Counted from the stretch's first letter, positions 1 to 29,871 are shown. The stretch is DNA of 64,000 nucleotides from an uncultured Nitrospirales bacterium (GCA_964384595.1 CAYLLY010000003.1:198-64197), one strand, 5' to 3'. Numbers and translations: made by a program. The notes: generated from the letters alone by a model not told the origin.

Positions 1-120
1 ATCGACAAATACGTCGAAGATGGCACCTCGGTTGCAACTCCGGAGGGGCTGGACCCGACCTTTTTCAAGAAATTGCTGGGGAAATTAACTCAACAGAAGG
101 AGGCTGGATATGAGCAGTAA
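1..120 (+). CDS. 3' end of an upstream ORF running off the left edge (partial, product unknown)
   Basis: Frame 1 is open from base 1 to TAA at 118-120 (IDKYVEDGTSVATPEGLDPTFFKKLLGKLTQQKEAGYEQ*). It overlaps the next start by 11 nt. Too short for a family call. Confidence 0.25.
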   Translation: MDKYVEDGTSVATPEGLDPTFFKKLLGKLTQQKEAGYEQ

Positions 121-3100
121 ATCGTTCGGTTGGAGAGATTCCGGCCGACTGGCCGATGCTCTCCAAACGATCGCGATCGCCGGCGGCTTGATCTTCTCGC
201 CGGCGGCGTTTGCCGCGGATGAGCACGCGCAGCACGCGGCTGGGGCGTCGAGCTCGGCTTGGGCTGAAAAGCTCAAGGGCCAGACGATCATCGAAAACGC
301 GATGGAGGGGCGTGCTGACCGGGCCGTGAAGGTGGACCTTCAGCATCAGCGCCTCATGCGCCAGATCGAGGAGCAGGCGAAAACGCAGCGGACATCGGGG
401 GGCTTCAACACGATGTCCACGATGCATCAGTTCGCGGGTCAGGACGGGGCCAGCTTCCTGCTGGCTTCGACGCCGGGCGTCGAGCCTGTCGCAATGACCG
501 GCGGGCGGTGCCCCAGCGGCGTGCCGGTCAAGGCGTACGATATCTCGATGATCGCCATCGAGATCACCCTGAACCGGTGGCTCGATTACTACCCGGGCTA
601 CATGTACGCGCTCACCGAGGACATCGGCAAGGTCCGGGGGGAGGAGGCTAGGAACAAGGCCGCGCGCGAGAACGAGAAGGATCCGTTCGATCCCGGCGCG
701 GTGACCACGGGCCTGCAGGGCGACATGATCCAGCCGCTGGTCATCCGCGCCAACCAGGGCGATTGCGTCAAGATCACCTTGCGGAACCAGTTGGAGAGCG
801 AGTCGGGCAGCCTCCACATCGGGGGTGCCAGCATGGTCGTCAGCGCCACCGGCAAGCTGGCGGCGACGACGAATCGTGACACCATTCTGGAGCCGAAGAA
901 GACGGTGGATCTGGAGTGGTACATCCATCCGAACACCCAGGAGGGCGTGCGGCAATTCCACTCTTACAGCAACGACCGGGAGCTGACGGTGATGGGGCTC
1001 TTCGGGGCCTTCGTCGTGGAGCCGAAGGGATCCCGGTACCTGGAACCCCTCGGTGATCCCAATACCCCGGCCCCGGAAACCAAGAGCGGCTGGCAGGTGA
1101 TCATTGACAACGGCTCCGGGCCGGACTTCCGCGAGCACGTGATCTTCTACCACGAGGTCGGCGACGAGGCGTTTCGCCCGGTGAACAAGAAGGGCGACTT
1201 CCTGCCGCAGCGCGACCCGATCACGGATGCCTACCGTCCGGGCGGCCGCGCGCTGAATTACCGCAGCGAGCCGTTCGGCATTGACGAGATGCACCTGCAG
1301 CACGAGTATTTCGGCTTCGAGGACGAGTCGCTTGCTTACAGCGCTTATACGTTCGGCGACGTGCCCACGACGCTTCCGCGGGCGTACCTGGGCGATCCCG
1401 TCAAGTGGCGGATCGTGCACGGCGGGTCGGAAGTGTTCCATTCCCACCATCCGCACGGCGGCTCCATCCGCTGGCCGCGCAGCCCGCGCGCGTTGGACAA
1501 CGAGTTGTGGGCCACGGCCACGAATGGCCCGGTGAAGTATCCGGTCGTCCGGACCAAGACGGACCGGGTGGACGTCGAGGTGATTGGCCCGGCGGAAGCG
1601 CTCGACCTGGAGAACGAGTGCGGGTCGGGTCTCTGCCAGCAATTGGCCGGGGACTTCCTGTTCCACTGCCACGTGGCGCACCACTATGTGGCGGGAATGT
1701 GGGGCTACGGCCGCACGTACAACACGCTGCAAGTCGGCCAGTACCATACCGACACGATGCCCGATCTGCGTGAGCTGCCGGACCGCCTGGGCCGCATGAA
1801 GGTCGGCGTGACCTCCGACAAGCTCATCGGCACGACGGTGGACTGGTTCGGCAAGATCTTCAAGATCGTGGAAAAGGGCAAATCCAACTGGAAGAGCGAT
1901 CCGGCGGTCGTGACCATCAAGGATTGGGTCGAGATGCAAGTGCCGACCATGGGCAAGCCGGGCCACAAGGATGACGAGAAGGGCCAGATCATGGCCTACG
2001 ACGCGACCGTGTGGGACTGGAAGTGGAGCGGCAACAAGGCTCTCGGCGAGCGCGAGAGCACGGCGAAGAACCCGAAGTATCCCGCGGCGGCGAAGTGGGA
2101 TGACAGCACGAGGCCGCCGATCCTGTTCGACGCGAAGACGGGCAAGGTGTCCTTCCCGTTGATCAAGCCGCACTTCGGCAAGCGCGTCATGTTCCCGCCG
2201 AACCACAACGGCGCGCCCTGGCTGGAGCAGATCCATCAGGATGCGAACGGCGAACGGACCGCCGAGCCGGCGACGCCGGGCGAGCAGGGCCGCTGGAGCC
2301 TCTGCCCGGAGAACGCCAACCGGAAGTTCTATAACATCCACTTCATCCGGACGCCGATCACCCTTGCCAAGAAGCAGGGCAAGGAGCCTCCGATCGTGGA
2401 CAAGGACGGCTTGATCTACGTGCTTCACGAGGAAGAAACCGACACGCGGGCGAACGACGACAAGAAGTACCCGCTGGTCATCCGCGCGAATGTGTACGAC
2501 TGCGTGGATTCGATTCTGACGAGCGAGTGGGACGACGACGACTTCACGAACTTCCAGTCGTCCAAGATCAACATCCATCCCCACTTTATGCAATTCGACA
2601 ACCAAGCGTCGGACGGCGTGATCAGCGGGCTCTCGTACGAGCAATCCGTGCGGCCGTTCACGATGATGGAGAAGCCGAAGAAGGCAGGCCTGCCGGTGCC
2701 GATGAATACGGTGCTGACGGACGCGGTGAAGGCGGGCAGCAAGACCATCAAGGTCAAGAACGCGGCCCAGTACCATGTGAACACCGAGTTGCTGGTCGGG
2801 GCGGACTGCCTGATGCCGAGCAAGGATACCTCCACGGCGGTGAAGCGGGAAGCGAGCTGCTCGGAAGTGGGCCGGATCAAGACGATCAACGGCAACGAGA
2901 TCACGCTCTACCAGCCGTTGAGGCATAACCACCCGGTCAAAGACATCGTGACGGTGGAGTTCGCCCGCATGCGGTGGTGGGTGGACGTGGATCTGGGCAC
3001 GGTCTTCTGGCACGACCACGCCTTCGGCGCGACCACCTGGCCGCACGGGGGGTTCGGCGTGGTCCTCATCGAGCCGTACGGGTCCACCTATCATGACCCG

Positions 3101-5026
3101 AAGACCGGCAAGAAGCTCTGGAGCGGTCCCATCGCCGACATCCACACCACGGAACCGATCGGGTACGGCGTGAACGGCAGCTTCCGTGAGCTGATGGTCT
3201 CGATCCATGACACGGTGCCGCATACCGTGAACATGATCCAGGCGGGGAATCCGCCCGGGCAGCCGATCGAGGTCGCGCTGGAAGGCGGCAAGACGGTGTC
3301 CTTCCAGATGCCGGACAAGATCCAAATGCTGCCCAATCAATATGTGAACGGCGGCACGCATACCACCGGAAGCGGGTTCAACTTCCGGGCCGAGCCGTTC
3401 GCGCAGCGTCTGGCGAACAACCCGGATACGGCCAAGCTGTTCAGCAGCGCCGTGCACGGGGACCCTGATACGCCTCTTGTCAAGGCCTACGTGGGGGACA
3501 CCCTGGTGTTCCGTCTCTTGCACCAGTTGATGAACGAGTCGCACGTGTGGACCAGCGCGGGCCATACCTGGCTAAGCGAGCGCTATGCGGGCGACGCCAA
3601 TCGGAAGTACTCGCTCCATGTCGGGATCGCCGAACGGTATGATCTCGTGAGCAAAGCGGGCGGCTTCCAGGGAATGCCCGGCGACTACATTCACTTCAAC
3701 GGGCGCGCCTCCCATTTCATGGAAGGCGGCTGGGGCATCATCCGTGTCCTGGACAAGGAAACGCCGGATCTGAAAAAGCTGCCGCCCGGCACGGCCAAGG
3801 CGGAAATCCCGGCGGTGCCGAAGTCGGTCTGCCCGGACGACGCGCCGGTGAAGACCTTCAACGTGGTCGCGATGGATCGGACGCTCGTCTTCAACACGAA
3901 GGCGAAAGGCGCGATCGAGGTGGACTTCGAGCGCAAGATCGAGGTCGGCAACACCGAAGGCAAGATCTTCGCGCTGGAGGACGAAGCCTCGCGCGTGGCG
4001 ACGGGGGCCCAGCCGATGCCGTTGACCCTGCGCGTGAACCTGGGTGACTGCATCAAGGTCAACCTGAAGAACAAGATGGCCGCGAGCCGGGCGTCGTTCT
4101 TTGCGCCGGGCCTGGCCTTCGATCCGAGAGATTCGCACGGGATCAACGTCGGCAATAATCCGGGCGACCAGACGATCGGCCCGGGCGAAAGCCGCACGTA
4201 CACGTTCTATGCCCATCCCCTCAACAAGGAGACCTCCTCCCTGGTGTGGGACGGCGCGAATATCGTGTCCAATCCGCGGAACGGGCTGTTCGGCTCGGTC
4301 ATCGTCGGGCCCAAGGGTTCCAAGTATAGAGACCCTGTGACCGGCGAGGACATTTCACAGAAGAACAGCTGGCGGGCCGACGTGATCGTGGATGCGAGCC
4401 TGCCGGAGAACGCCGGCAAGAGCAACTACCGGGACGTGGCCCTCTTCTTCCAGGATGAGGACAACATCATCGGGACGAGCTTCATGCCGTACGTGCAGAA
4501 CGTGGCCGGCTTGACGGGCGTGAACTACCGGAACGAGCCGTACAAGCAGCGCGAGGAGCAGGGGTGCAAGCTCGGGCATATCTTCCAACCATGCTCGGTG
4601 ACGCAACCTGAAGATCCGCAAACGCCTTTGATCGAGGCGCATGCCGGCGATCCGGTGCGGATCCACGTGTTCGGCGCGTGGAGCGAGCAGAACGGCATGT
4701 TCGGTGTCGAAGGCCACGAGTGGCCGATCGAGCCGTACATGGCCGGCGCGGACATGATCAGCGTGGTCGAGTTCGCCGGTTCCGAGTTCCTGGACGTCTT
4801 CATCCGGGGCGGAGCGGGCGGACCATACCGGCAGACCGGCGACTATGTCTGGTCGAATCAGCGGCTCCCATACTCGCAGTCGGGACAGTGGGGGTACCTA
4901 CGGGTCCTGCCGGCGAACGACACGCGAATCAAGTCGCTGGGCGACGCGTCTGCGGCTGGCCAGAGGGCGGAAACACAGCCTGAGGCGCCCGTTGCGACGC
5001 CGGCGGCGTTGAAAGCCGAGAAGTAA
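110..5026 (+). CDS. Giant secreted multicopper oxidase, six cupredoxin domains (three repeats of a two-domain unit); same size class as MofA/MnxG-type large MCOs
   Basis: 1638-aa ORF with RBS aaggagg (97-103) 6 nt before ATG110. Signal-like N-terminus (IAIAGGLIFSPAAFAADEH). Three-fold internal repeat: LVIRANQGDCVKITLRN / LVIRANVYDCVDSILTS / LTLRVNLGDCIKVNLKN, and FGAFVVEPKGSRY / FGVVLIEPYGSTY / FGSVIVGPKGSKY. Cu-ligand motifs: HSHHPHGG, one H-C-H-x3-H-x4-M (HCHVAHHYVAGM, nt 1664-1699), IHPH, and WHDH (nt 3008-3019). Confidence 0.88.
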   Translation: MSSKSFGWRDSGRLADALQTIAIAGGLIFSPAAFAADEHAQHAAGASSSAWAEKLKGQTIIENAMEGRADRAVKVDLQHQRLMRQIEEQAKTQRTSGGFNTMSTMHQFAGQDGASFLLASTPGVEPVAMTGGRCPSGVPVKAYDISMIAIEITLNRWLDYYPGYMYALTEDIGKVRGEEARNKAARENEKDPFDPGAVTTGLQGDMIQPLVIRANQGDCVKITLRNQLESESGSLHIGGASMVVSATGKLAATTNRDTILEPKKTVDLEWYIHPNTQEGVRQFHSYSNDRELTVMGLFGAFVVEPKGSRYLEPLGDPNTPAPETKSGWQVIIDNGSGPDFREHVIFYHEVGDEAFRPVNKKGDFLPQRDPITDAYRPGGRALNYRSEPFGIDEMHLQHEYFGFEDESLAYSAYTFGDVPTTLPRAYLGDPVKWRIVHGGSEVFHSHHPHGGSIRWPRSPRALDNELWATATNGPVKYPVVRTKTDRVDVEVIGPAEALDLENECGSGLCQQLAGDFLFHCHVAHHYVAGMWGYGRTYNTLQVGQYHTDTMPDLRELPDRLGRMKVGVTSDKLIGTTVDWFGKIFKIVEKGKSNWKSDPAVVTIKDWVEMQVPTMGKPGHKDDEKGQIMAYDATVWDWKWSGNKALGERESTAKNPKYPAAAKWDDSTRPPILFDAKTGKVSFPLIKPHFGKRVMFPPNHNGAPWLEQIHQDANGERTAEPATPGEQGRWSLCPENANRKFYNIHFIRTPITLAKKQGKEPPIVDKDGLIYVLHEEETDTRANDDKKYPLVIRANVYDCVDSILTSEWDDDDFTNFQSSKINIHPHFMQFDNQASDGVISGLSYEQSVRPFTMMEKPKKAGLPVPMNTVLTDAVKAGSKTIKVKNAAQYHVNTELLVGADCLMPSKDTSTAVKREASCSEVGRIKTINGNEITLYQPLRHNHPVKDIVTVEFARMRWWVDVDLGTVFWHDHAFGATTWPHGGFGVVLIEPYGSTYHDPKTGKKLWSGPIADIHTTEPIGYGVNGSFRELMVSIHDTVPHTVNMIQAGNPPGQPIEVALEGGKTVSFQMPDKIQMLPNQYVNGGTHTTGSGFNFRAEPFAQRLANNPDTAKLFSSAVHGDPDTPLVKAYVGDTLVFRLLHQLMNESHVWTSAGHTWLSERYAGDANRKYSLHVGIAERYDLVSKAGGFQGMPGDYIHFNGRASHFMEGGWGIIRVLDKETPDLKKLPPGTAKAEIPAVPKSVCPDDAPVKTFNVVAMDRTLVFNTKAKGAIEVDFERKIEVGNTEGKIFALEDEASRVATGAQPMPLTLRVNLGDCIKVNLKNKMAASRASFFAPGLAFDPRDSHGINVGNNPGDQTIGPGESRTYTFYAHPLNKETSSLVWDGANIVSNPRNGLFGSVIVGPKGSKYRDPVTGEDISQKNSWRADVIVDASLPENAGKSNYRDVALFFQDEDNIIGTSFMPYVQNVAGLTGVNYRNEPYKQREEQGCKLGHIFQPCSVTQPEDPQTPLIEAHAGDPVRIHVFGAWSEQNGMFGVEGHEWPIEPYMAGADMISVVEFAGSEFLDVFIRGGAGGPYRQTGDYVWSNQRLPYSQSGQWGYLRVLPANDTRIKSLGDASAAGQRAETQPEAPVATPAALKAEK

Positions 5027-5141
5027 GCGGTATTGAATATCCTGCACACTGATCGGGGCGCCCGTTGCATTGACCCTTTGCTTCTCGAAGAGCAATGGGT
5101 TCCCCAGCAACGGGCACCCGGTTGAGTGCAAGCTCGGTGAA

Positions 5142-5180
5142 GGGGGGGCGCTGGTTCAAAGCGCCCCCCCGTTTCGTTTA
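5142..5180 (+). terminator. Rho-independent terminator after the giant MCO gene
   Basis: Perfect 11-bp GC-rich stem GGGGGGGCGCT (5142-5152) / AGCGCCCCCCC (5160-5170) with a 7-nt loop, followed by GTTTCGTTTAAAAA. Confidence 0.7.
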
Positions 5181-5222
5181 AAAAGAAGCGCGTTTCAGAT
5201 GTGTACTGCAGGGGAGGCCGGA

Positions 5223-6173
5223 ATGGATTATCAGAGCAAGGTCGGTCATCAGATGGGAGGAGGCCGTGGACTGCTGCTGTGCCTGGTTTTCTCACTGGCA
5301 TTCGGGGTGCCGGGGGTCTCAGCCTACCAGGAAGCGCCGGTCACGGATGGCGGGAAAATTTCCGGAACGGTCACGCTCAAGGGCGGCAAACCGGTTCCGC
5401 GGGGGTTCAACCTCGTCACGTTCCCGGACCCTTTGTACTGCGGGCGTATTTCGAACGGCGCCGGCTGGCGGCTGTTGAAGGAGTTCGCGATGGGTCAGGA
5501 GAACGGCGTCAAGGACGTGGTGGTGATGCTGAGCGGAATCGAGAAGGGCAAGCCGTTCGCGTTCCAGACGCCTCGCATCGAAGCGATCGACTGCCTGTTC
5601 AGACCGTTTGTCACCGTCGTTCGGGATCACGACAAGGTGGAAGTCGTCAACATGGACCCGGTCATGCACGACATCCAGGGTTACGAGACGTCGGAATTGG
5701 GACCGCGAGTCCTGTTCAACAGACCGATGCCGATGAATCCCCATCATCCTCGAACCGCCGGTCAGAGCGCCGAATACCATAAGCATATTCCCGGCGAGCC
5801 GATGGTTCAGGAAATCAACATGACCAAGGGACGCCACGTTTTCGTCATGCAGTGCGGATTCCACGCCTACATGGAAAGCTGGGGCCTGGCCGTGGATAAT
5901 CCCTACTTTGCCTTGACGGATCAGTCCGGGGGGTTCGAGATCGGCAATATCCCGCCGGGGACGTACAAGCTCGTCGTCTGGCATCCTCAGGCCCGTCAGA
6001 CCATCGAACAGGAAGTGACGATTCCGGCCAAGGGTTCTGCGATGATGAATTTTGAGATTCAGCCGCGCGAGGGCGCTCGGGCCGGCATGGATACGGTGGA
6101 GAACCCCCGGTTCGGCCTCGGCATCCTCGGAAGCGCCCAGATCAAGCCCACGCTTGAGCTGCAACAGCCGTAA
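5223..6173 (+). CDS. Secreted cupredoxin-like protein with putative type-1 Cu site and C-terminal beta-sandwich (carboxypeptidase-regulatory-like) domain
   Basis: ATG5223 preceded by ggggagg; the track ORF begins at 5070 but has no RBS there. Signal peptide LLLCLVFSLAFGVPGVSAYQ. Candidate Cu ligands: NMDPVMH and CGFHAYM (C-x2-H-x2-M). C-terminus GGFEIGNIPPGTYKLVVWHP...AKGSAMMNFEI. Clear paralog of 26984-27730. Confidence 0.8.
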   Translation: MDYQSKVGHQMGGGRGLLLCLVFSLAFGVPGVSAYQEAPVTDGGKISGTVTLKGGKPVPRGFNLVTFPDPLYCGRISNGAGWRLLKEFAMGQENGVKDVVVMLSGIEKGKPFAFQTPRIEAIDCLFRPFVTVVRDHDKVEVVNMDPVMHDIQGYETSELGPRVLFNRPMPMNPHHPRTAGQSAEYHKHIPGEPMVQEINMTKGRHVFVMQCGFHAYMESWGLAVDNPYFALTDQSGGFEIGNIPPGTYKLVVWHPQARQTIEQEVTIPAKGSAMMNFEIQPREGARAGMDTVENPRFGLGILGSAQIKPTLELQQP

Positions 6174-6193
6174 CCGGCGGGAGCCCTTGGCCG

Positions 6194-6799
6194 TCAGTAG
6201 GCCTGGATGGGCGGGGGACTTGGAGCGGGGGGGCGCCACTCGGCATATCCGAGAGGAGGCTCAAAGAAAAAGGCGGGCTGTTTCGAAAACACGACGTGTT
6301 CGTACTCGACGGACCAATCACGATCCCGGCTGACGGTCCGCAGGGGAACCCCGTGTTCGACCGACACCCATTGGTAGTACCGTTCAGCCGAAGCTCCGCT
6401 CCCCACGGTGACGTCGTACAGGCGGGACCGGTGCCCGCCGAGTTTCTCTTCGCCCACGAGGACGCGGGCGGTTTCTCCCTCCATGGTTTCCGTGAGCGGA
6501 ATGAGGTGGTCCGGTCGCAGCGGCAGGGAGAGGTACTGTCTGCGCTTCGAGAGGAGCAGCCACACCGCCTGCTTGTCCAGTCGCACGATCGACACCCCGG
6601 CATAGCCCAGGTCGGTGAGCACGCCGCCCCGGTGCTCCAACCGCCACCGGTCGTCCTTCACGTATAATTGCGCCCGCGTTGTTTTCCCGTTCGAGCGGGA
6701 CACATAGTCGGCCGAAAATTCCACGGCAAAGGAGCATTCGACGGAGGCGAAGAACCACAGTGCTCCCGAAGCCGCCGCTGTCAGGCGTGTGATGGTCAC
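6194..6799 (-). CDS. Secreted LolA-like/DUF4412-like protein (function unknown)
   Basis: 201-aa ORF with signal-like N-terminus (AAASGALWFFASVECSFAVEF). It starts 10 nt after the stop of the upstream minus-strand gene. Paralog of 48570-49160 (shared F.AE/ADY...RWR.E.R...YYQWV...R.VS..DW..EY..V.F..Q...FFEPP.GYA). Confidence 0.7.
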   Translation of the reverse strand: MTITRLTAAASGALWFFASVECSFAVEFSADYVSRSNGKTTRAQLYVKDDRWRLEHRGGVLTDLGYAGVSIVRLDKQAVWLLLSKRRQYLSLPLRPDHLIPLTETMEGETARVLVGEEKLGGHRSRLYDVTVGSGASAERYYQWVSVEHGVPLRTVSRDRDWSVEYEHVVFSKQPAFFFEPPLGYAEWRPPAPSPPPIQAY

Positions 6800-6808
6800 G
6801 GGCGCCCG

Positions 6809-7651
6809 CTACCGTGCGGGGGCGGGCGTGGCGTCCGCCGCGCAGCGGAATCCCGTCGAGTGGTTCCGATTCAAGGGGTCGCTCATGACACGGGTGACGG
6901 AACGCACGAGCGGCGTCTCGACTTCCCATCCGGAACTGCGCAGCACTTTGTGCGTGCCGTTCTCGGGGCCTTTCGGATTCCGCGCCGGGCTTTTCTCATA
7001 GTAGTGCGCGTCATACCAGTCGGCGACCCATTCCCAGACATTGCCGGCCATGTCGTAAACCCCAAACGGGCTCTTGCCGGCCTCATAGCTTCCCACCGGC
7101 ATGAGCGTTTTCTCGCCCTGCCAGCGCTGGTTGAAGTTCAAATGCTTGTGTGTCGGTTCGACGTTGCCCCAGGGGAAACGGCGGTCGTCCGTGCCCCGCG
7201 CGGCTTTCTCCCACTCCGCTTCGGTCGGGAGGCGCCGACCGGCCCACCGGCAATACGCATTCGCATCATGCCAGTCCACGTTGACGACCGGCCGGTCGGC
7301 AATGGACTCCGGCATGGCCGCGCCCTGCCACAGGTTCCGGCCCGGATCCTTGAGATGCTGCGGGGGCCGGTGGCCGCTCGCGCGGACGAACTCCCGGTAG
7401 CGGCCGTTCGTCACCTCGAATTTGTCGATGTAGTAGGGATCGAGAAAGATCTCGTGGTTGGGATACTCGTCGCGGCCCCCGTCGCGGTCGCCCTTGGGCA
7501 CGCCCATCGGGAACGGGCCGGCGGGAACGAGGACCATCGGCGCGCCGTCCTTGCCGGTGGTGGTTCCGGCCGGATCGGCGCCGACGCCGGGTTCCGGGAT
7601 GAGCCAAAGGACTACGCTGAACACCATGGCCCTGAATAGAATGACTTGCAT
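6809..7651 (-). CDS. Formylglycine-generating-enzyme (FGE/SUMF1, DUF323) family protein, secreted
   Basis: Family signatures: YCRWAGRRLPTEAEWEKAARG, GNVWEWVADWY, RSSGW, STGFRCA. N-terminal signal peptide. Confidence 0.85.
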   Translation of the reverse strand: MQVILFRAMVFSVVLWLIPEPGVGADPAGTTTGKDGAPMVLVPAGPFPMGVPKGDRDGGRDEYPNHEIFLDPYYIDKFEVTNGRYREFVRASGHRPPQHLKDPGRNLWQGAAMPESIADRPVVNVDWHDANAYCRWAGRRLPTEAEWEKAARGTDDRRFPWGNVEPTHKHLNFNQRWQGEKTLMPVGSYEAGKSPFGVYDMAGNVWEWVADWYDAHYYEKSPARNPKGPENGTHKVLRSSGWEVETPLVRSVTRVMSDPLNRNHSTGFRCAADATPAPAR

Positions 7652-7779
7652 CGGGACGCTCTCTCGACGTTGTATGTTGTGATCTAACAGTCCTGGGTTG
7701 CCGTGTCAAGGCACTGTCCTTGACCTTCTTCGGGATGGCGTGCTATGCCCGCGCTACGTTATGCGAGGGACGTAAGGAA

Positions 7780-9105
7780 ATGAGACGAGTGTTGCGGGTT
7801 GTCGGGGTTGTGGCCGGGGTGTGCTTCTTGCAAGCGGGCGCCGTGCCGGCGGCCGACACGCTCAACGAGGCGCGTGCAGCCTTCGAGAAACGCGATTACG
7901 CCAAAGCCGTGACCCTTCTGGATGCCCTGATCGGGAAAGGCCCGGGGCCTTCAGGTGCGCTTGAGCTGCGGATGCGGACCCATCTCAAACTGAACCTGCC
8001 GGAAAAAGCGGTCGGCGACTACAACCGATTGGCCGAGCATCGCGGCGCGGAGGATCGCCCGCTGCTCCGGGAGCTGGCGTTGGGCGTCATTGCCCCGGCG
8101 GTGCTCGACATGCGGGAGCAAATGCGCGGGGCGGCGGTGACGGCCTTGAAGGAGATGGCGGGCGCCGACACGCTGCCGTTGCTGGAGTCGGCGCTGGCCG
8201 ATCAGTCGGCGCTGGTTCGCGCCCTGGCGGTCGAAGGGGTTGCCCTCCTGGGCCACGCCGCCCACTCGGCCCGTCTGCGCAAGCTTCTGAAGGACCCGGC
8301 CGCACTGGTCCGGGAGCGTGTGGTGCGCGCACTCGGCGAATCGGGAGACCGGCAGTTCATCCCTGAAATCGAGACCCTCTTGAAAGACGACCAGCCGCGG
8401 GTGAAAGCCGCGGCCGCGGCGGCCCTCGTGGCGTTGGGACGAGCGGAGGCGCTGACCACGGTGCTGGATGGGTTGAAACATCCCAAGCCGGACGAACGGG
8501 CCGCGGTGCTCCGGATACTCGCGCACCTGAAGGACGCCCGGGCGATTCCGGCGATCAAGGCGGCGTTGACCGACCGCGACGGCAACGTCCGCGCAGTCGC
8601 GGCGGGGATATTGGCCGAGCGCGGCGAAGCCGGGGCGGCGCCGGCCATCGCCTTGCTGATCCGGGACCCCGCGGCCATCGCCAGGGGCAAAGCGGCCGCC
8701 GGTCTGGCCAAGCTGGAGGGAGCGAGGGCCGCCCCCGTGATCGAGCCGCTGTTGCAGGAGGAAAACCTGTTCGTGCGCGCCGAGGCCGCCGTGGCGTTGC
8801 TGCCGTACAAGCCGGCGTCGGCCGAGCCGGCCTTGCGGGCCTCCATGCAGTCCCGGGATCCCGGCGTCCGCTCGGCCGTGGGCAAGGCGCTCGCGCACAC
8901 CGGGAATCCCGTCGTCCTGCCGTACCTGCTCGAACTCATGCGGGACGACACCCCGCGCCCCCGCATCACGGCCATTCGCGCCCTCGGCCATCTTGGCTCC
9001 GAGAAATACCTGCCGACGCTGAAACCGCTCCTATCCGACGCTGATGTCGCGGTTCGGGTCACGGCGGCGGGGTCCATCGGTCGCCTGCTGCACGAGTCAA
9101 AATAA
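7780..9105 (+). CDS. HEAT-repeat (PBS-lyase-type) protein with N-terminal signal and TPR-like segment
   Basis: Start moved to ATG7780 (MRRVLRVVGVVAGVCFLQAGA). Repeated units such as DQSALVRALAVEGVALLG, DPAALVRERVVRALGESGDRQFIPEIETLLKDDQPRVKAAAAAALVALG, DRDGNVRAVAAGILAERG, DPGVRSAVGKALAHTGNPVVLPYLLELMRDD, DADVAVRVTAAGSIGRL. Confidence 0.8.
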   Translation: MRRVLRVVGVVAGVCFLQAGAVPAADTLNEARAAFEKRDYAKAVTLLDALIGKGPGPSGALELRMRTHLKLNLPEKAVGDYNRLAEHRGAEDRPLLRELALGVIAPAVLDMREQMRGAAVTALKEMAGADTLPLLESALADQSALVRALAVEGVALLGHAAHSARLRKLLKDPAALVRERVVRALGESGDRQFIPEIETLLKDDQPRVKAAAAAALVALGRAEALTTVLDGLKHPKPDERAAVLRILAHLKDARAIPAIKAALTDRDGNVRAVAAGILAERGEAGAAPAIALLIRDPAAIARGKAAAGLAKLEGARAAPVIEPLLQEENLFVRAEAAVALLPYKPASAEPALRASMQSRDPGVRSAVGKALAHTGNPVVLPYLLELMRDDTPRPRITAIRALGHLGSEKYLPTLKPLLSDADVAVRVTAAGSIGRLLHESK

Positions 9106-9112
9106 AGAGATT

Positions 9113-9982
9113 GTGCGGCCTTTCTCACTCATTTTGGCTGCGCTTCTCGTCACGCCGGCAGCCCAGGCGGCCGCAGCGGATGAGGTCGTCGACCTAGGGC
9201 GGCACCTCGCCGCCATCGCGCAGCTTGCCAGGCCGTCGCCTATGGTCCTGGTCACGGAAGGCCGGTTCCTCATGGGCACCATCCGAAAAGACGACGATCC
9301 CTATGGGATGGAGGCCCAGTTCGACGACACCGAGATACCGCAGCGCCGCATTTGGCTCGACACCTACGAGATTGACCGCGATGAGGTGAGCCTGGCCGAG
9401 TACCTTGCGTGGTTGCAGGAGCAGCGCCGCCCGCCGCCGGAGGAGTTGCAGCGTCTGATCCGGCACCTCGTCAGCGTGCACAGCCTGCCGGATTACGTCA
9501 TGGCGCGCTGGCCCGCGCTGTACGTCGTCTGGCAGGAGGCGGCGGACTTCTGCCGGAGCCGGGGCAAGCGTCTGCCGACGGAGGCCGAGTGGGAGAAGGC
9601 GGCACGGGGGCCCAATGGCAACCTCTTTCCGTGGGGCAAGGCGAAGCCGGAGTGGGGGCTGGCGGTGTTCGGACAGTACCACGTTCACGAGATCCCGCTC
9701 GTGGCGGCGGTGGACAGCGGGGAGGAAGGACGCAGTCCCTTCGGCCTCCGTCACATGGCGGGCAACGTGGCGGAGTGGGCGCAGGACTGGTTTGGGACCG
9801 ACTACTATGTCGTGATGCCGGAGCAGAACCCCCAGGGGCCTCCGACCGGCCGATACAGGAGCGTGCGCGGCGGCTCCTGGAAGAGCAAGCCGGGCATGCT
9901 GCGGACAGCGACCCGGGGCGGCGCCGTGCCGGACCAGCGCGCGGCGACCATCGGATTCAGATGCGCCCGACCGGTGCCGTGA
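9113..9982 (+). CDS. Formylglycine-generating-enzyme (FGE/SUMF1, DUF323) family protein, secreted (second copy)
   Basis: FCRSRGKRLPTEAEWEKAARG, GNVAEWAQDWF, RGGSW, TIGFRCARP. GTG9113 chosen because it gives the signal peptide VRPFSLILAALLVTPAAQAAA and avoids a long overlap with the HEAT gene. The start remains uncertain (track ORF begins at 9044). Confidence 0.82.
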   Translation: MRPFSLILAALLVTPAAQAAAADEVVDLGRHLAAIAQLARPSPMVLVTEGRFLMGTIRKDDDPYGMEAQFDDTEIPQRRIWLDTYEIDRDEVSLAEYLAWLQEQRRPPPEELQRLIRHLVSVHSLPDYVMARWPALYVVWQEAADFCRSRGKRLPTEAEWEKAARGPNGNLFPWGKAKPEWGLAVFGQYHVHEIPLVAAVDSGEEGRSPFGLRHMAGNVAEWAQDWFGTDYYVVMPEQNPQGPPTGRYRSVRGGSWKSKPGMLRTATRGGAVPDQRAATIGFRCARPVP

Positions 9983-11306: not shown

Positions 11307-13715
11307 ATGGGCATGTTTCGCTCAAGTCTTAAGCGGACCATCATCGTGTATATCTTTTTTGTAGGTCTGATCCCTTTGGGGATCGGCGCTACGCTCGTCT
11401 ATTTCTACGGAACCCGCTCGCTGCAGGATTCGATCGGGATGGGCTTTCAGGAGCTTGCGGTCGAGACTTCGCATCAGGTGGATGCGGTTCTGGAGGCGGA
11501 AATCCAGCGCATGCGCGTCATCGCCAATGTTCCGGTCATCATCAAAGGCCTGGCCTACCGGGCCAACCGACGCTATGACGGCATGCCCGAGGAAGCCGTC
11601 AGGAAATTGCTGGCCAGGCAGGAGGAGGCGTGGGGCGGCAACCAGCTCTCCGATCATGAGGTGTTGTCCAACCGCGCGGCCCGCTTCCTCGTCGAGACCA
11701 AGGAGCTGGCCGGGGACACGATCATGGGGATCCTGGTCACGGACATCCATGGAGTCGTCATCGCCGCCACCTCTCGTCCGAAGCGGTTCACGCACGCGCA
11801 CGAGGCCTGGTGGAAAGGCGCGCTTGACCCGGCCGGGTCCGGTTTCTATATCAGCGATATCGTCGAGAAGGGGCAGGGCACCTTTGCTTCCCAGGGAGAC
11901 ACCCTCGACATCGCCATCCCGATCATGGACGCCAGCCAGGAAAAGCCGGTGGGTGTGCTCAAGGTGTGCTACCGGTTCGACAATCTGTTTGCCCTGATCA
12001 ACAAGATCCGCATCGGCCAGACGGGCCACGGGATGCTGTTCGCCTCCGACGGCACCCCGCTGATTTGCCCGATCCTTCCCCGGACGGCTCATCGGATGGA
12101 TGGCGGGCTGCTCCGGATGATCGTCTCCGAGAAGCCGGGTTGGGTCGTGGCGGAAGATGACGGGCATGGGGCCCGTCAGACCGTGGTCGGTTTCGCGCCC
12201 CTGCAGGGCCTCAAACATCTCAGGGGGGACAGCCTCGGCGGGAAGACCTGGCACGTGTTCATAAGGCAGCATCCGAGCGAGAGCTTCGCCCCGCTGCGGG
12301 ACCTGCTCGTCAAGGTCGGAGGGGTCGGAATCGTCCTCGTGGGGTTTCTGGCCTTCCTCGGCAACTTCGTGGGAACGAAGCTTGTCCGGCCGATCCAGAC
12401 TCTCCACGACGGGGTGGAGGCGATTCGGCGGGGTGACCTGTCCCATCGCGTGTCCCTCAGGACCGGCAATGAACTGGAAGCCCTGGCCGAAACGGTCAAC
12501 AACATGGCGCAGCAGTTGAACGCCTCCAAGGCCGAATTGGAAAGCTGCAACCGTTCCCTCACGGAACAGGTGACCGAGCAGACGAAGGAGCTGACCCGGC
12601 AGGTCCGGCGGATGGATGCGATCCTGAACAACATGGCCGAGGGGCTCATCATCATGAACAGCACATGCGACATCGAGTTCATGAATCCGGCCGCCAGGAC
12701 GCTCTACGGGATGAACATGGGGAAGCGTTGGTCAAATCTGCTCTATGGCCGGGTGAGCCCCTGCACGGAATCCGATCATGCCTGCCCGACCCCCGACTGC
12801 CCGGTTGGCGCCTTGCTTTCCGGGAGTCGCGACGTTTACCAGTACGAAACGAGGGACCAAAAGGGGCGGACCCTGCAGGTCAATATGGTTCCTACCGCCG
12901 GTGAGGAGGGAGAGGGGCTGATCGTTGTTCTCCTTCGGGACGTCAGCCGGGAGTCCAAGCTGAAGAGGCAACTCATGCTCTCCGAGAAACTGGCGACGAT
13001 GGGGAAGATGGCCGGCGGGATCGCCCACGAGATCAACAACCCGTTGGGCATCGTCCTCAACCGGATCGAGTGCATCGAGCGCGAAGCGCGGGGACAGGGC
13101 GTTCCCGCCGGCTTTCTGAAGGACCTCGCCGTCATCAGGAATCACGCCAGCCGGATCGTGCGGATCACCAAGAGCCTGCTGACGTGCTCCCGCGATTCTG
13201 CCATGACGCTGAAGCCGCTTGATGTCAATACGATCGTCAAGGACGCGATGGCTCTCGCCGGAGAGCGGCTGCACAAGGCGGGAGTCAGGATCACGAGCGA
13301 GCTCGCGGAGAACCTGCCCGCCGTCATGGGAGACAAGGACAAGATCGAGACGGTCATCGGGAACCTCCTGGATAACGCCATTGACGCGGTTCCCGCCTCG
13401 GGCGGAACGGTCACGGTGCAGACGCGGAATGTGACTCTCAGCAGGAGCGGCGGTGTGGAGATCGCCGTCTCGGATAACGGACCCGGGGTCTCCCCGGAAT
13501 TCTCGGAACGGGTGTTCGAGCCCTTCTACACGACGAAGCCAGCCGGCAAAGGGACGGGGCTGGGTCTGTTTCTCTGTTATGCGATCGTCAAGGAGCACAA
13601 AGGCGAAATCACCGTGGTCCCCAAGCGGGAGGGCAGAGGCAGCACCTTCCTCGTCACGCTGCCGGGGCTCGAAACTCGAGTCGGGGAGGAAGAGGAATGG
13701 ACGGCAAAATTCTGA
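11307..13715 (+). CDS. Sensor histidine kinase (two TM helices, periplasmic Cache-like domain, HAMP, Cys-containing PAS, HisKA, HATPase)
   Basis: TM1 IIVYIFFVGLIPLGIGATLVYFY and TM2 VGGVGIVLVGFLAFLGNFVG. HAMP RPIQTLHDGVEAIRRGDLSHRV. H-box HEINNPL. N/G boxes DNAIDA, DNGPGV, GTGLGL. Confidence 0.9.
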   Translation: MGMFRSSLKRTIIVYIFFVGLIPLGIGATLVYFYGTRSLQDSIGMGFQELAVETSHQVDAVLEAEIQRMRVIANVPVIIKGLAYRANRRYDGMPEEAVRKLLARQEEAWGGNQLSDHEVLSNRAARFLVETKELAGDTIMGILVTDIHGVVIAATSRPKRFTHAHEAWWKGALDPAGSGFYISDIVEKGQGTFASQGDTLDIAIPIMDASQEKPVGVLKVCYRFDNLFALINKIRIGQTGHGMLFASDGTPLICPILPRTAHRMDGGLLRMIVSEKPGWVVAEDDGHGARQTVVGFAPLQGLKHLRGDSLGGKTWHVFIRQHPSESFAPLRDLLVKVGGVGIVLVGFLAFLGNFVGTKLVRPIQTLHDGVEAIRRGDLSHRVSLRTGNELEALAETVNNMAQQLNASKAELESCNRSLTEQVTEQTKELTRQVRRMDAILNNMAEGLIIMNSTCDIEFMNPAARTLYGMNMGKRWSNLLYGRVSPCTESDHACPTPDCPVGALLSGSRDVYQYETRDQKGRTLQVNMVPTAGEEGEGLIVVLLRDVSRESKLKRQLMLSEKLATMGKMAGGIAHEINNPLGIVLNRIECIEREARGQGVPAGFLKDLAVIRNHASRIVRITKSLLTCSRDSAMTLKPLDVNTIVKDAMALAGERLHKAGVRITSELAENLPAVMGDKDKIETVIGNLLDNAIDAVPASGGTVTVQTRNVTLSRSGGVEIAVSDNGPGVSPEFSERVFEPFYTTKPAGKGTGLGLFLCYAIVKEHKGEITVVPKREGRGSTFLVTLPGLETRVGEEEEWTAKF

Positions 13716-15073
13716 TCATAGACGACGAGCCGGAGCTGCTCGAGAATTGCCGCCGCATCCTCTCAACGAGCGGCTATCGGTGTCTGACCGAAACCGATCC
13801 GGTCAAGGCCATTGGCGAGATCGAGCGGGAACACCCCGCCCTGATCCTGACGGACCTGAGGATGCCGACCATGAGCGGGATCGAAGTGGTGAAGGCGGCC
13901 AAGAAAATCGACCCGGATTCGGTGGTGATCTTGTTTACCGCCTTTGCGGCGGTGGAGACGGCCGTCGCCGCCATGAGGGAAGGGGCCTTCGACTACCTCT
14001 CGAAGCCGTTCTCGTCCGCCGATTTCGAGCTGGTCGTGCAGCGGGCCATGGAGCACTACAACATCCTCCATGAGAACAAGTATCTGCGCTCCCAGCTCCA
14101 GGAGCGTTTCTGCTTCGACAAGGTGATCGGCGTCAGCGAGGCGATGCAAGAGGTGTTCTCGCTTGTTCAGAAGGTCGCCAAAGCCCAGTCGAATGTCTTG
14201 ATTTACGGGGAAAGCGGGACGGGGAAGGAACTGATCGCGCGGACGATCCACGCGAACGGTCCCCGTGCGGCCAGGCCGTTCATCCCCGTCGACTGCGGCT
14301 CCCTGGCGGAGACGCTTCTGGAGTCCGAGCTCTTCGGGCACGAGAAAGGGGCCTTCACGGGCGCCCATGCGACCAAGCAGGGCTTGTTTGAGGTGGCCGA
14401 AGGGGGCACGATCTTTCTGGACGAAATCGGGGGGATGAGTCTGAACCTCCAGTCTCGCCTGCTCCGTGTCCTCCAGGAGCGCCAGGTCAGGCGAGTCGGC
14501 GGCACGAGATTTCTTGACGTGGATGTCCGGGTTATTTCGGCCTCGAACCGGGACCTGAAGGAAGCGATCAAGAACGGGACGTTCCGCGAAGACCTGTTTT
14601 ACCGTCTGAACGTGGTACAGATCACTCTGCCGCCCCTCCGTGGCAGAGCCGGGGATGTCCCGATCTTGGCGAACGCCTTTCTGCGACACTTTGCGGAAGC
14701 CAATAAGGAGACGGTCAAAACGCTTGACCCGCGCACGGTCCGCTGCCTTGAGGAATATCACTGGCCTGGCAACATCCGGGAACTGAGGAACGTGATCGAG
14801 CGCGCGGTCACCCTGGTGGATGGCCCGACGTTGTTGCCCGAGCACCTTCCCGAAGGCATCAGGTACGGGGCTCTCGAAGAATCCCGGGCCGAGGGGTCGA
14901 CGATGATGGCTGCGAAACAGGCCATCATCGGCGCCTTCGAGCGCAATTACTTGGTGGACCTGCTCAAGAGACACAAGGGACACATCGGGCACTCGGCCCA
15001 AGAGGCCGGGGTGGATCGGAAGACAGTCGAGCGCATGCTCAAGAAACACGGCCTCAAAGCCAACGGGAACTGA
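13697..15073 (+). CDS. Sigma-54-dependent response regulator (NtrC family enhancer-binding protein)
   Basis: Receiver ILIIDDEPELL...LILTDLRMP. AAA+ Walker A GESGTGKE. Sigma-54 contact motif GAFTGA. C-terminal HTH HSAQEAGVDRKTVERMLKKHGL. Overlaps the kinase gene by 19 nt. Confidence 0.92.
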   Translation: MDGKILIIDDEPELLENCRRILSTSGYRCLTETDPVKAIGEIEREHPALILTDLRMPTMSGIEVVKAAKKIDPDSVVILFTAFAAVETAVAAMREGAFDYLSKPFSSADFELVVQRAMEHYNILHENKYLRSQLQERFCFDKVIGVSEAMQEVFSLVQKVAKAQSNVLIYGESGTGKELIARTIHANGPRAARPFIPVDCGSLAETLLESELFGHEKGAFTGAHATKQGLFEVAEGGTIFLDEIGGMSLNLQSRLLRVLQERQVRRVGGTRFLDVDVRVISASNRDLKEAIKNGTFREDLFYRLNVVQITLPPLRGRAGDVPILANAFLRHFAEANKETVKTLDPRTVRCLEEYHWPGNIRELRNVIERAVTLVDGPTLLPEHLPEGIRYGALEESRAEGSTMMAAKQAIIGAFERNYLVDLLKRHKGHIGHSAQEAGVDRKTVERMLKKHGLKANGN

Positions 15074-23607: not shown

Positions 23608-24231
23608 ATGGACGAGAAGGAAACCAAAGACAGCAAACTGAAGATGCTCAAGGAATTGGGCGAGGATGTGGGATGCATGACGCGCCGCAAGCTGCTCTTC
23701 CTGGGCGGCTTGGCCACGGCCACGACGCTGCTCCCGCCGGCCGTTGCGGACACGCTTGCCGCGGCGCCGAAGGCCAAGCCCAAGGAGGCGTCGAAGAAAC
23801 CGACGCCGGTGGCGATGCAGAGCACGCATTACCCGAGAAAGAAAGTCGGCAAATTGAGCGCGTTGAAACAGGACGAGCCGGTGAAGATCTCCTATCCGGC
23901 CGAGCATCCGAATCACAAGGCGCTGCTCATCAAACTGGGCGTGCCGGCGCTCGGCGGCGTGGGTCCGCAGAAGGACGTGGTGGCGTTCAGCGCGCTGTGC
24001 GTCCACCAGGGCGGACCGCTCGAAGACCGGTACAACGCGAAGGAAAAGATCATGGGGCCGTGCGAATTCCATCTCTCAATGTACGATCTCACGAAGCACG
24101 GGATAATCACGAGCGCGTCGGCGACCCAGAACCTCCCGCAAGTTGTGCTGGAGGTGGAAGGGGACGACATTTACGCGGTAGGGATGCAGGGGCTCATCTA
24201 CGGGTTCCCGGACAACCTGCTGCCCGTCTAG
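23608..24231 (+). CDS. TAT-exported Rieske [2Fe-2S] small subunit, AioB/IdrB-like
   Basis: RBS aggagg (23591-23596). Twin-arginine TRRKLLFLGGLATA. Rieske boxes CVHQGG and CEFH (C-x-H ... C-x2-H). 18-nt gaps to both neighbouring genes. Confidence 0.88.
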   Translation: MDEKETKDSKLKMLKELGEDVGCMTRRKLLFLGGLATATTLLPPAVADTLAAAPKAKPKEASKKPTPVAMQSTHYPRKKVGKLSALKQDEPVKISYPAEHPNHKALLIKLGVPALGGVGPQKDVVAFSALCVHQGGPLEDRYNAKEKIMGPCEFHLSMYDLTKHGIITSASATQNLPQVVLEVEGDDIYAVGMQGLIYGFPDNLLPV

Positions 24232-24249
24232 ACGTAAGGGGGTGAAGAC

Positions 24250-26983: not shown

Positions 26984-27730
26984 ATGGGCAAGTATAGGTT
27001 TGTAATGGCGGCCGTGGCGGCGATGGGGCTCGTGGCGGCGCCGGCGGCATTCGGATATGAGGAAGCGGCTGTGAGCGACGGGGGCGCCGTCACCGGCAAG
27101 ATCAGCTTCAAGGGGAAGGTCCCTGAGCCACAGCATTTCCTGGTGCAGAAGAACCCTGACGTCTGCGGGAAGGAGCGCGATTTTCCGTTCGTGCGGGTGA
27201 AAGACGGAGCGCTCCAGAACGTGGTGGTGGTCATCGAAGGCATTGAAAAGGGGAAACCCTTCACGCACGCGCCGACCGAGTTTATCGGGAAGGAATGCGC
27301 GTTTCTTCCGTATGTGTCGTTCGTGACCAAGAAGGGCGTGGACGGGTGGCCGGTGTTCAAGATCGAGAACACGGACACCGTCATTCACAATCCCCACACC
27401 TATGCGATCGCGGGGGCGACGCGGGTGACGTTATTTAACGTCGCATTGCCGGAGAAAGGCTCCAAGCTGGAGAAGGAGCTGAAGAACAGGAAAGGCAACG
27501 TCATCAAGCTGGAGTGCGACCAGCACGACTTCATGCACAGTTGGACGCGGGTGGTGGAGCATCCCTACTTCGCGGTGGTGGACGACGGGGGCGCCTTCAA
27601 GATCGACGGCGTGCCGGCAGGCAAGTACAAGCTCGTGGCGTGGCATCCGATCCTGGGCGAGCAGACGGCGGAAGTAACCGTCGCGGCCAAGGGATCGGCG
27701 AAGGCGGATTTCACGTTCGCGGGAAAGTAA
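26984..27730 (+). CDS. Secreted cupredoxin-like protein with putative type-1 Cu site and C-terminal beta-sandwich domain (paralog of 5223-6173)
   Basis: Signal peptide MAAVAAMGLVAAPAAFG. Candidate Cu ligands NTDTVIH and CDQHDFM (C-x2-H-x2-M). C-terminus GGAFKIDGVPAGKYKLVAWHP...AKGSAKADFTF. Confidence 0.85.
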   Translation: MGKYRFVMAAVAAMGLVAAPAAFGYEEAAVSDGGAVTGKISFKGKVPEPQHFLVQKNPDVCGKERDFPFVRVKDGALQNVVVVIEGIEKGKPFTHAPTEFIGKECAFLPYVSFVTKKGVDGWPVFKIENTDTVIHNPHTYAIAGATRVTLFNVALPEKGSKLEKELKNRKGNVIKLECDQHDFMHSWTRVVEHPYFAVVDDGGAFKIDGVPAGKYKLVAWHPILGEQTAEVTVAAKGSAKADFTFAGK

Positions 27731-28918: not shown

Positions 28919-28951
28919 GGGGTGGTTTGATTCGAACCGAGAGGGAGAGCG

Positions 28952-29419
28952 ATGAGGCGACGGGCGGTCTGTGCGAGCGTAGCGATGGTAGGGCTGGTTC
29001 TGGGTGCGGCGATCGCTTACGGGGATGAGCCCCTCCCTCCGGTGCCGCCGGAATACAACAACCATAGCATGCCGAAAGGCTGGTGGACGGACCCGAAAGT
29101 GATCGCGGCCGGCAAGAAGATCTACACGGAAGGAATGCCCGACGAGGAGGGGAAGATCCAGAAGTGCGCCAAGTGCCATGGAGAAGATGGGAACCCCAAG
29201 CTGCGCGGCGCCAGGGACTTCCGGGCCGAGACGAAGATCAACCGGTATTCGGACAGTTACTTCTTCTGGCGGGTGTCCGAAGGCGTTCCCAAGACCAAGA
29301 TGAAGGGGTGGAAAGAGCGGCTGACGGATGAACAACGCTGGCAGGTGATCGCGTATGTCCATACCTTTTCGCACGGCGGAAAGCCGGAAGAGCACAAACA
29401 CAAGGAGGTCGGGAAGTGA
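28952..29419 (+). CDS. Mono-haem c-type cytochrome, periplasmic
   Basis: Signal peptide. Single CxxCH (CAKCHGEDG). Downstream YFFWRVSEG...MKGW with a Met candidate ligand. Confidence 0.85.
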   Translation: MRRRAVCASVAMVGLVLGAAIAYGDEPLPPVPPEYNNHSMPKGWWTDPKVIAAGKKIYTEGMPDEEGKIQKCAKCHGEDGNPKLRGARDFRAETKINRYSDSYFFWRVSEGVPKTKMKGWKERLTDEQRWQVIAYVHTFSHGGKPEEHKHKEVGK

Positions 29420-29493
29420 GGATGACCGGGAGGCGGGCCCCGGCGGGCTGAGCGAGTTGGCCGCTGCCGGCTCCGGAATACTGTGGACAGCGT

Positions 29494-29871
29494 ATGCCGA
29501 ACGGCGGTCGTTTGGCGAGGGTGGCATTCATGCTCGTGAGTCTCATGATTACGATCCTGACCGGGGTGGCCGTTCCGGCTGAAATCCATGAGGTGACCTT
29601 GCTGGACCGGGCGCCGTTCTACAGTTCCGGTCAGACGGTCAAGGTGACCGTCGGCGACACGGTCAGGTGGAAGAACCCGATGACGAAGGACGGCGCGACG
29701 CATACGGTGACGCAGATGGGATGCCTGACGGGCGATGCGTGCGAGTTCGATTCAGGGGTGTTGGCGCCGGGCCAGACATTCACCCACACGTTCACTGTGG
29801 CGGGCACGTTCACGTACCGCTGTCGCCTGCATGCGCTGATGGAGGGGGTCATCGTCGTCAATGGTCAATGA
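29494..29871 (+). CDS. Small blue-copper protein (plastocyanin/amicyanin-like cupredoxin)
   Basis: GDTVRWKNP...GATHTV and YRCRLHALMEG (C-x2-H-x2-M). Alternative start at ATG29530, which has a gaggg RBS. Confidence 0.82.
   Translation: MPNGGRLARVAFMLVSLMITILTGVAVPAEIHEVTLLDRAPFYSSGQTVKVTVGDTVRWKNPMTKDGATHTVTQMGCLTGDACEFDSGVLAPGQTFTHTFTVAGTFTYRCRLHALMEGVIVVNGQ

Follow-up and report, generated by a model that had tools for sequence, protein, structure and literature searches.

A 64,000-nucleotide stretch of DNA from an uncultured Nitrospirales bacterium (GCA_964384595.1 CAYLLY010000003.1:198-64197; hereafter the window) carries on its plus strand, at 110-5026, an ATG-started open reading frame (ORF) of 1638 residues whose product is an MnxG-type six-domain multicopper oxidase with one type 1 (T1) copper site and one trinuclear cluster. 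The enzyme is predicted to be exported by the Sec pathway and to act in the periplasm (or as a secreted protein) with Mn(II) as its most likely electron donor, an assignment for and against which we find the balance about even. The gene family has already been described in nitrite oxidisers and the window gene is an orthologue; the copper-site map, a sigma-54-type promoter, a conserved terminator hairpin and a blue-copper-like candidate partner kept across phyla are new here.

The protein is built from three tandem two-cupredoxin units, six domains in all, as an initial annotation of the window had proposed along with the extent of the ORF. Profiles of the three units, built from 119 homologues and compared with hhalign over ~340 columns per alignment, match one another in every pairing: U1 (residues 130-545) aligns with U2 (725-1215) with a probability of 98.4% (E = 9e-15) and with U3 (1235-1605) with 99.6% (E = 7e-25), and U2 aligns with U3 with 99.4% (E = 5e-21). 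Self-BLAST of the protein returns no internal repeats; it is blind to them, and the triplication therefore needed profile-profile alignment. Three repeat motifs had been listed as occurring three times each. FGxxxxxPxGSxY does so (298-310, 982-994 and 1394-1406), but LVIRANxxDC is found only twice (210-219 and 789-798) and LTLRVNLGDC once (1305-1314); these two are three copies of one motif family, not three of each.

Pfam recognizes only Cu-oxidase_3 (residues 201-306 and one further stretch) and Cu-oxidase_2 (425-531). An AlphaFold model of residues 36-1225 (domains 1-4), based on an alignment of 54 sequences reaching down to 34% identity, has a mean predicted local distance difference test (pLDDT) score of 84.7 and a predicted template modelling (pTM) score of 0.84. 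The six-domain assignment stands because domains 5 and 6 have profile matches of their own beside this model: residues 1299-1406 of domain 5 align with the first domain of two-domain laccases, and domain 6, taken by itself, hits MnxG in each of its three even-numbered domains (180-354, 634-804 and 1071-1208; E = 1.5e-26). Every odd-numbered domain has a conserved Cys pair (134/219, 732/798 and 1241/1314) that may form a disulfide. The N-terminus (K4/R9/R13, a hydrophobic segment at 16-32, then AFA followed by A; by eye, with neither a twin-arginine motif nor a lipobox Cys) reads as a Sec-type signal peptide, in line with the initial annotation. On the plus strand GAAGGAGG at 96-103, 6 nt 5' of the ATG, reads as the ribosome-binding site, and most orthologues inspected have GGAGGC(C) ahead of the ATG. 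An ATG-started ORF of 1166 residues on the minus strand (65-3565) was rejected as a gene and is treated as an artefact, because long antisense ORFs are expected at the G+C content of the window (~63%) and this one has no independent support; all homology lies on the plus-strand product. Coordinates of the features are collected in the table.

Features of the oxidase gene and its surroundings in the window. Positions in nt; residue numbers refer to the respective protein.
Feature	Position	Residues	Strand	Remarks
Sigma-54 (-24/-12) promoter, putative	21..36		+	TGGCAC-N5-TTGCA; ~74-90 nt 5' of ATG
Sec-type signal peptide, predicted	110..214	1-35	+	cleavage after AFA; read by eye
N-terminal extension, helical, poorly modelled	215..499	36-130	+	pLDDT <50 at model residues 1-37 and 50-95
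Domain 1, cupredoxin fold	500..1045	~131-312	+	Cu-oxidase_3; pLDDT >90; Cys134/Cys219 conserved
Domain 2	1082..1729	~325-540	+	Cu-oxidase_2 425-531; predicted T1 site and half of trinuclear cluster
Module between domains 2 and 3	1730..2284	~541-725	+	pLDDT ~90
Domain 3	2285..3109	~726-1000	+	predicted other half of trinuclear cluster; beta-rich insert
Domain 4, even-type cupredoxin	3137..3754	~1010-1215	+	hhalign U1 vs U2
Domain 5, odd-type cupredoxin	3812..4339	~1235-1410	+	laccase domain 1 profile match; hhalign
Domain 6, even-type cupredoxin	4340..4924	~1411-1605	+	MnxG even-domain match; hhalign
Intrinsic-terminator-like hairpin	5142..5180		+	stem 5142-5170, 11 bp, 10 G-C; T-rich tail; between oxidase and next gene
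Conserved exported neighbour	5223..6173	~316 aa	+	downstream of oxidase; database name 'carboxypeptidase regulatory-like'
Uncharacterised protein	6194-6799	201 aa	-	signal-peptide-like N-terminus
FGE-sulfatase-domain protein	6809-7651		-	Pfam; signal-peptide-like N-terminus
HEAT-repeat protein	7720-9105		+	Pfam; signal-peptide-like N-terminus
Second FGE-sulfatase-domain protein	9044-9982		+	Pfam; signal-peptide-like N-terminus

One complete canonical set of copper ligands follows along the chain in the order HxxHxH, HCHxxxHxxxxM, HxH and HxH. The motif H-C-H-x3-H-x4-M occurs exactly once (residues 519-530, nt 1664-1699), as first reported; the HxH motifs then described as scattered are present but are not stray, since they are the remaining canonical ligands (444-449, 823-825 and 968-970). 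Domain 2 holds HSHHPH at 444-449 (H444, H447 and H449; nt 1439-1456) and, in the HCH motif, H519, C520, H521, H525 and M530; domain 3 holds HPH (H823 and H825; nt 2576-2584) and HDH (H968 and H970; nt 3011-3019). All twelve ligands are invariant in the 119 homologues, which are of the Nitrospira lineage; ten of them do not vary in the 54-sequence alignment either, where H825 and H968 are kept in at least 90%. They pair one-to-one with the ligands of the solved MnxG structure (9bxa), in which the residue opposite H525 is alanine; this is the H340A mutation of the PDB title, so that H525 corresponds to MnxG H340. The predicted T1 copper lies in domain 2 (H444, C520, H525 and axial M530) and the predicted trinuclear cluster comprises eight histidines, H447/H449/H519/H521 of domain 2 and H823/H825/H968/H970 of domain 3. 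The protein thus has ligands for four coppers only. Because MnxG has the identical ligand order, the oxygen-reducing centre would sit at the domain 2/3 interface.

The equivalent positions of the other domains are empty. In domain 4 an invariant Asn1197 stands at the T1 Cys position and Gly1207 replaces the axial Met, in domain 6 an invariant Asn1583 replaces the T1 Cys, domain 5 has no His ligands and domain 1 is without HxH pairs. The earlier suspicion that the third unit has lost its metal sites is borne out, and the loss extends to domains 1 and 4. MnxG-type enzymes normally have one HCH motif, which is therefore no oddity here.

Sequence and fold lead to the same relative. MnxG is the only sequence match of the oxidase in the PDB (9bxa_A; phmmer E = 1.7e-79, profile E = 2.8e-97), and Foldseek with the model of residues 36-1225 ranks the same chain first among PDB entries ('Mnx H340A complex from Bacillus sp. 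PL-12', E = 7e-62), followed by ceruloplasmin (~1e-23), factors V/VIII (~1e-20) and two-domain laccases (~1e-15). The best NCBIfam match is the MnxG model of the Pseudomonas type, NF041487 (127.5 bits in eight stretches). The CueO, CopA and ascorbate oxidase models score 13.4, 20.8 and 22 bits against cut-offs of 525, 479 and 615, and filing as a CueO/CopA-type enzyme was rejected on these negligible values. A ceruloplasmin-type filing was also rejected, given Asn at the T1 Cys of domains 4 and 6, a domain 1 without HxH and cluster ligands in domains 2/3. The metal oxidase proposed in the initial annotation has its six cupredoxin domains and a complete T1 plus trinuclear ligand set, and among characterised proteins it stands closest to the Mn(II) oxidase MnxG rather than to phenol or bilirubin oxidases.

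The best 120 database matches are full-length and 70-92% identical, and all that bear an organism name are Nitrospira or Nitrospiraceae; some database homologues bear the name 'manganese oxidase'. A scan of species-representative genomes gave 79 loci, all of the Nitrospira lineage, among them Nitrospira defluvii (L027; 74% identical). Identity is 60% to the homologue of Candidatus (Ca.) Manganitrophus and 55% to that of Nitrospina gracilis 3/211. Several Nitrospira genomes hold two or three oxidase paralogues (L003/L062, L002/L055, L053/L041, L006/L064 and L024/L066/L070), and these fall into two clades, with 73-82% and 67-71% identity to the query. The wider family falls into 1724 clusters (50% identity) whose members are 1400-3800 residues long; of ten cluster representatives looked up, hardly any bore a name. 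On a metagenome contig of the Nitrospina clade (L080, 1-12920) two oxidase copies lie ~3 kb apart.

Mn(II) is favoured as donor, and appears to be the best single guess, because the one close relative with a characterised activity, MnxG, oxidises Mn and has its ligands laid out identically. By homology, Mn(II) would be oxidised to Mn(III)/Mn(IV). By the mechanism established for multicopper oxidases, the donor would give up one electron at a time at T1 and the H519-C520-H521 bridge would relay the electrons to the trinuclear cluster, where four of them would reduce O2 to two H2O, with domains 1, 4, 5 and 6 acting as a copper-free scaffold. Physiologically, the enzyme would protect against reactive oxygen or handle Mn rather than yield energy.

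Several points weigh against Mn(II) oxidation. The score against NF041487 lies far below the equivalog cut-off of 3100 bits, and the blocks aligned with Bacillus MnxG are ~30% identical or less, as estimated by eye. Two parts of the chain are missing or much shorter in MnxG. The module between domains 2 and 3 is ~110 residues longer (query 559-741 vs MnxG 377-447), and its H688 and H699 are invariant in Nitrospira and kept in at least 90% family-wide. Domain 3 has a confidently modelled beta-rich insert of ~105 residues (~845-950; nt 2642-2959) between its two HxH motifs, with H889 and H941 invariant and a Cys900/Cys917 pair in 98/119 homologues. The translations of 5220-6170 and 6194-6796 match no chain of 9bxa, an entry whose chain content is unchecked, and no MnxE/MnxF-like partner is detected; this look covers the two downstream neighbours, the upstream region being cut by the window edge and the upstream genes of N. 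defluvii being regulators. We know of no demonstration of Mn(II) oxidation by a Nitrospira, and a study of sand filters likewise treats the matter as open. The same study reports 'mnxG' in every Nitrospira metagenome-assembled genome (MAG) and finds homology a poor predictor of function for such oxidases.

Work on other nitrite oxidisers bears on the same question. The N. gracilis gene was called a 'possible manganese oxidase' with its best hit in N. defluvii, and Mn(III)-mediated defence against reactive oxygen was proposed [Lücker et al., 2013 (PMC3578206)]. In Pacific metaproteomes the Nitrospinae homologue is the second most abundant oxidoreductase of the group; it co-varies with catalase in the oxygenated South Pacific and with NxrA in the oxygen-depleted north (PMC9477243). 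That its function is there described as unconfirmed also counts against the Mn(II) assignment.

A further point against Mn(II) as sole donor lies immediately downstream. The neighbour at 5223-6173 contains H150 (nt 5667-5669), C212 (5853-5855), H215 (5862-5864) and M218 (5871-5873), numbered on the translation of 5220-6170. This His...Cys-x2-His-x2-Met arrangement is the amicyanin-type T1 ligand pattern; it is invariant in 66 and in 42 homologues and is retained in a paralogue within the window, in Nitrospina and in Manganitrophus. The sequence argues strongly for a blue-copper site in the neighbour. Its homologues occur at 67/79 Nitrospira loci, in both paralogue clades of the oxidase and mostly directly after it, and downstream of the oxidase the gene is found again in N. 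gracilis, Ca. Manganitrophus and the Nitrospina-clade contig, with C-x2-H-x2-M kept. The neighbour is a conserved partner of the oxidase and probably its redox partner; its conservation across two phyla suggests that the donor, or acceptor, of the oxidase is a protein. This gene and the sigma-54 promoter were both overlooked in the initial annotation, and they open a rival reading, in which the oxidase exchanges electrons with the co-encoded blue-copper-like protein and not, or not only, with free metal. Either reduced cupredoxin would feed the oxidase, which would then drain electrons from the nitrite-oxidation chain to O2 as a soluble enzyme of the periplasm, or T1 would hand metal-derived electrons to the cupredoxin and so to the respiratory chain. 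We regard such coupling as possible but doubtful.

The gene pair is kept across Nitrospira, N. gracilis, the contig L080 and Ca. Manganitrophus despite oxidase identities of 55-60%, which argues for coupling, as does the invariance of the copper motif in the neighbour. Its paralogues also point this way. A 248-residue paralogue at 26984-27730 (+) has the same His...C-x2-H-x2-M (31.5% identity, E = 3e-36) and adjoins an arsenite-oxidase-like enzyme, and further paralogues lie beside c-type cytochromes in Nitrospina; because they adjoin a Mo/Rieske enzyme and c-type cytochromes, the family fits periplasmic electron carriers. The window itself holds a cytochrome c, a small cupredoxin and a bd-like oxidase, and the Manganitrophaceae oxidases would, it has been noted, need a periplasmic carrier for lithotrophy (PMC9040806). 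Against coupling, the values for a putative cupredoxin fold of the neighbour are weak: its model has a pLDDT of 63.6, with <50 around residues 213-216, and Foldseek returns amicyanin, plastocyanin, 5fc9 (Nitrosopumilus cupredoxin) and NirK with a probability of 1.00 but weak E-values of 2-7e-3. Searches of Pfam and NCBIfam find no cupredoxin domain in it, the only Pfam match being CarboxypepD_reg at 231-280. A conserved terminator lies between the two genes, which may therefore not be co-transcribed, periplasmic O2 reduction conserves no energy, and the neighbour could be a copper-delivery factor. A stronger form of the proposal makes the oxidase and its neighbour a two-protein periplasmic electron-transfer module of Nitrospira, Nitrospina and Ca. 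Manganitrophus that serves energy metabolism and is not a defensive Mn oxidase; this we consider quite improbable.

The N-terminal extension and the genes around homologues bear on another rival, a periplasmic cuprous oxidase or ferroxidase for Cu/Fe homeostasis like CueO or ceruloplasmin/Fet3p. In the extension H79, M105 and H106 are invariant, and a Met/His patch at nt 395-430 (residues 96-107; GGFNTMSTMHQF in the window, with NTMSTMHQ) has the family consensus MSMMHQYM. CueO-type enzymes have Met-rich Cu(I) sites, which the patch recalls, although it lies in a region modelled with low confidence. Ferroxidase activity is known from six-domain relatives such as ceruloplasmin, which the model matches in fold at E ~1e-23; a CopD-like gene stands directly upstream in Ca. 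Manganitrophus, and a distant family member is flanked by SCO1/PCuAC-type genes, not by a blue-copper-like gene. FGE-sulfatase-domain neighbours fit as well, true FGE being a copper enzyme. Copper chaperone neighbours are, however, equally expected for the maturation of any four-copper enzyme, the CueO and CopA scores are negligible (13 and 21 bits vs 525 and 479), the ceruloplasmin layout of three T1 sites and a 1/6 cluster is not present, and among characterised relatives the nearest oxidises Mn. A role in Cu(I) or Fe(II) oxidation is the lesser rival, ranking below the partner-coupled enzyme, and is unlikely.

The weak similarity to two-domain laccases (E ~1e-6) and generic multicopper oxidase chemistry would also allow a laccase, phenol oxidase or bilirubin oxidase acting on organic substrates. 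These matches span single domains only and are 50 to 90 orders of magnitude weaker than those to MnxG, and to our knowledge there is no phenol oxidase among the characterised members of the giant six-domain clade, so that this substrate class is hardly credible.

TGGCACCTCGGTTGCA at 21-36 is a perfect sigma-54 -24/-12 element and the sole match to TGGCAC-N5-TTGC in the 64 kb (0.10 expected). A strict search of the upstream regions of orthologues (TGGCA[CT]-N5-TTGC) finds it in only 3/78; a relaxed GG/GC core with flanks revealed the conservation, GGCA[CT]-N5-[TC]TGC being present on the coding strand within 500 nt upstream at 35/39 orthologous loci (at least 73% identity) and at 1/36 loci of the paralogue clade, with one minus-strand match and seven matches in ~600 kb as controls. 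The second paralogue clade keeps the partner gene although it is without the sigma-54 motif. The element lies closer to the ATG in the window (~74-90 nt) than in most orthologues (210-300 nt). A sigma-54 promoter implies control by an enhancer-binding regulator and hence a dedicated signal. In N. defluvii and Ca. Manganitrophus, genes for sigma-54 activators lie just upstream of that for the oxidase. The window encodes a histidine kinase (802 residues) and an NtrC-type sigma-54 activator (458 residues) at 11307-15073 (+), 6 kb downstream of the oxidase; this activator is a candidate regulator of the promoter because its homologues (43-49% identity) sit upstream of the oxidase in many orthologous loci.

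Judging from the motifs, transcription would start from the sigma-54 promoter and largely end at the hairpin after the gene. The terminator assigned to the gene in the initial annotation is confirmed as a stem of 11 bp followed directly by GTTTCGTTTA, and a G+C-rich hairpin lies 3' of the oxidase stop in 23/23 related loci, with a T run after it in most. Rfam finds no RNA family in window positions 1-7000.

The genes at 6194-9982 have homologues at 31-33/79 loci and on L080. A link to the oxidase is suggested by this recurrence only, and their products may be maturation or copper-handling factors. NirV, whose gene adjoins nirK, is of the FGE family. In the Mn-lithotroph Ca. Manganitrophus sp. 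SA1 (L082, 2723-13914) Rieske/cytochrome b genes, a cytochrome c, a PAS-domain sigma-54 activator and a CopD-like membrane protein precede the oxidase-partner pair, with a sigma-54 motif 134 nt ahead of the oxidase gene.

Further redox genes are found in the window, all on the plus strand. An arsenite-oxidase-like pair (23608-26919) stands directly before the neighbour paralogue at 26984-27730; a Tat-signal-like TRRKLL and Cys/His motifs of the Rieske type are seen by eye in its small subunit (23608-24231), and its large subunit (24250-26919, 889 residues) has Rieske_3, Molybdopterin and Molydop_binding domains. The product of 27749-28918 has two heme c-binding motifs (CNECH and CAACH) and is possibly of the cytochrome c peroxidase/MauG type; it is followed by a cytochrome c with CAKCH (28952-29419), a plastocyanin-like cupredoxin of 125 residues with C-x2-H-x2-M (29494-29871) and a cytochrome bd-like oxidase of 677 residues (30885-32918). 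The run 27749-32918 resembles the NXR-associated gene set of Lücker et al. (2013). A two-domain copper protein of 377 residues at 36618-37751 (Cu-oxidase_3 and Cu-oxidase_2; 23% identity to the giant oxidase, E = 3e-6) may be NirK-like, from its size and domain content.

Oxidase homologues occur in ~80 Nitrospira-lineage genomes retrieved here, besides every Nitrospira MAG of the sand-filter study. If the enzyme does oxidise Mn(II), nitrite oxidisers would tie nitrogen cycling to that of manganese in oceans, soils and drinking-water filters. If the partner module were real, electrons taken from a metal, for instance Mn(II), might be fed to the respiratory chain, or those from nitrite might be passed to O2 by a soluble oxidase. 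The blue-copper-like neighbour found in two phyla is the most useful new clue to the role of the oxidase. The existing annotation is not overturned; the mapped sites, the sigma-54 control and the partner make the enzyme more directly testable.

Like MnxG of Bacillus sp. PL-12 (9bxa), the oxidase has three two-domain units, a T1 site in domain 2, a cluster split between domains 2 and 3 and the identical ligand order, and the two proteins align collinearly across domains 1-6. The query is longer (1638 residues vs 1227) and adds an N-terminal extension of ~95 residues; a predicted Sec signal would direct it to the periplasm, while MnxG of Bacillus belongs to the spore coat. The proteins of N. gracilis (NITGRv1_620037) and Ca. 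Nitrospira defluvii are direct orthologues with the same length, ligand set and downstream partner gene. MnxG of the Pseudomonas putida type (NF041487) shares the giant multicopper oxidase superfamily, but the query is no equivalog of it; Leptothrix MofA is presumably another giant member of this superfamily.

Among eukaryotic six-domain cupredoxin proteins, ceruloplasmin and coagulation factors V/VIII likewise consist of three two-domain units (Foldseek E = 1e-20 to 1e-24). In ceruloplasmin a T1 site is present in each of domains 2, 4 and 6, and domains 1 and 6 enclose the trinuclear cluster; the query has one predicted T1 site and its cluster ligands in domains 2/3. Its repeat unit resembles the subunit of the two-domain laccase SLAC, domain 5 being similar to SLAC domain 1 and domain 2 to SLAC domain 2. 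Two-domain laccases act as trimers with inter-subunit clusters, and the predicted cluster between units of the query mirrors these. Unlike in SLAC, the three units are fused in one chain and one of the three possible inter-unit sites is kept.

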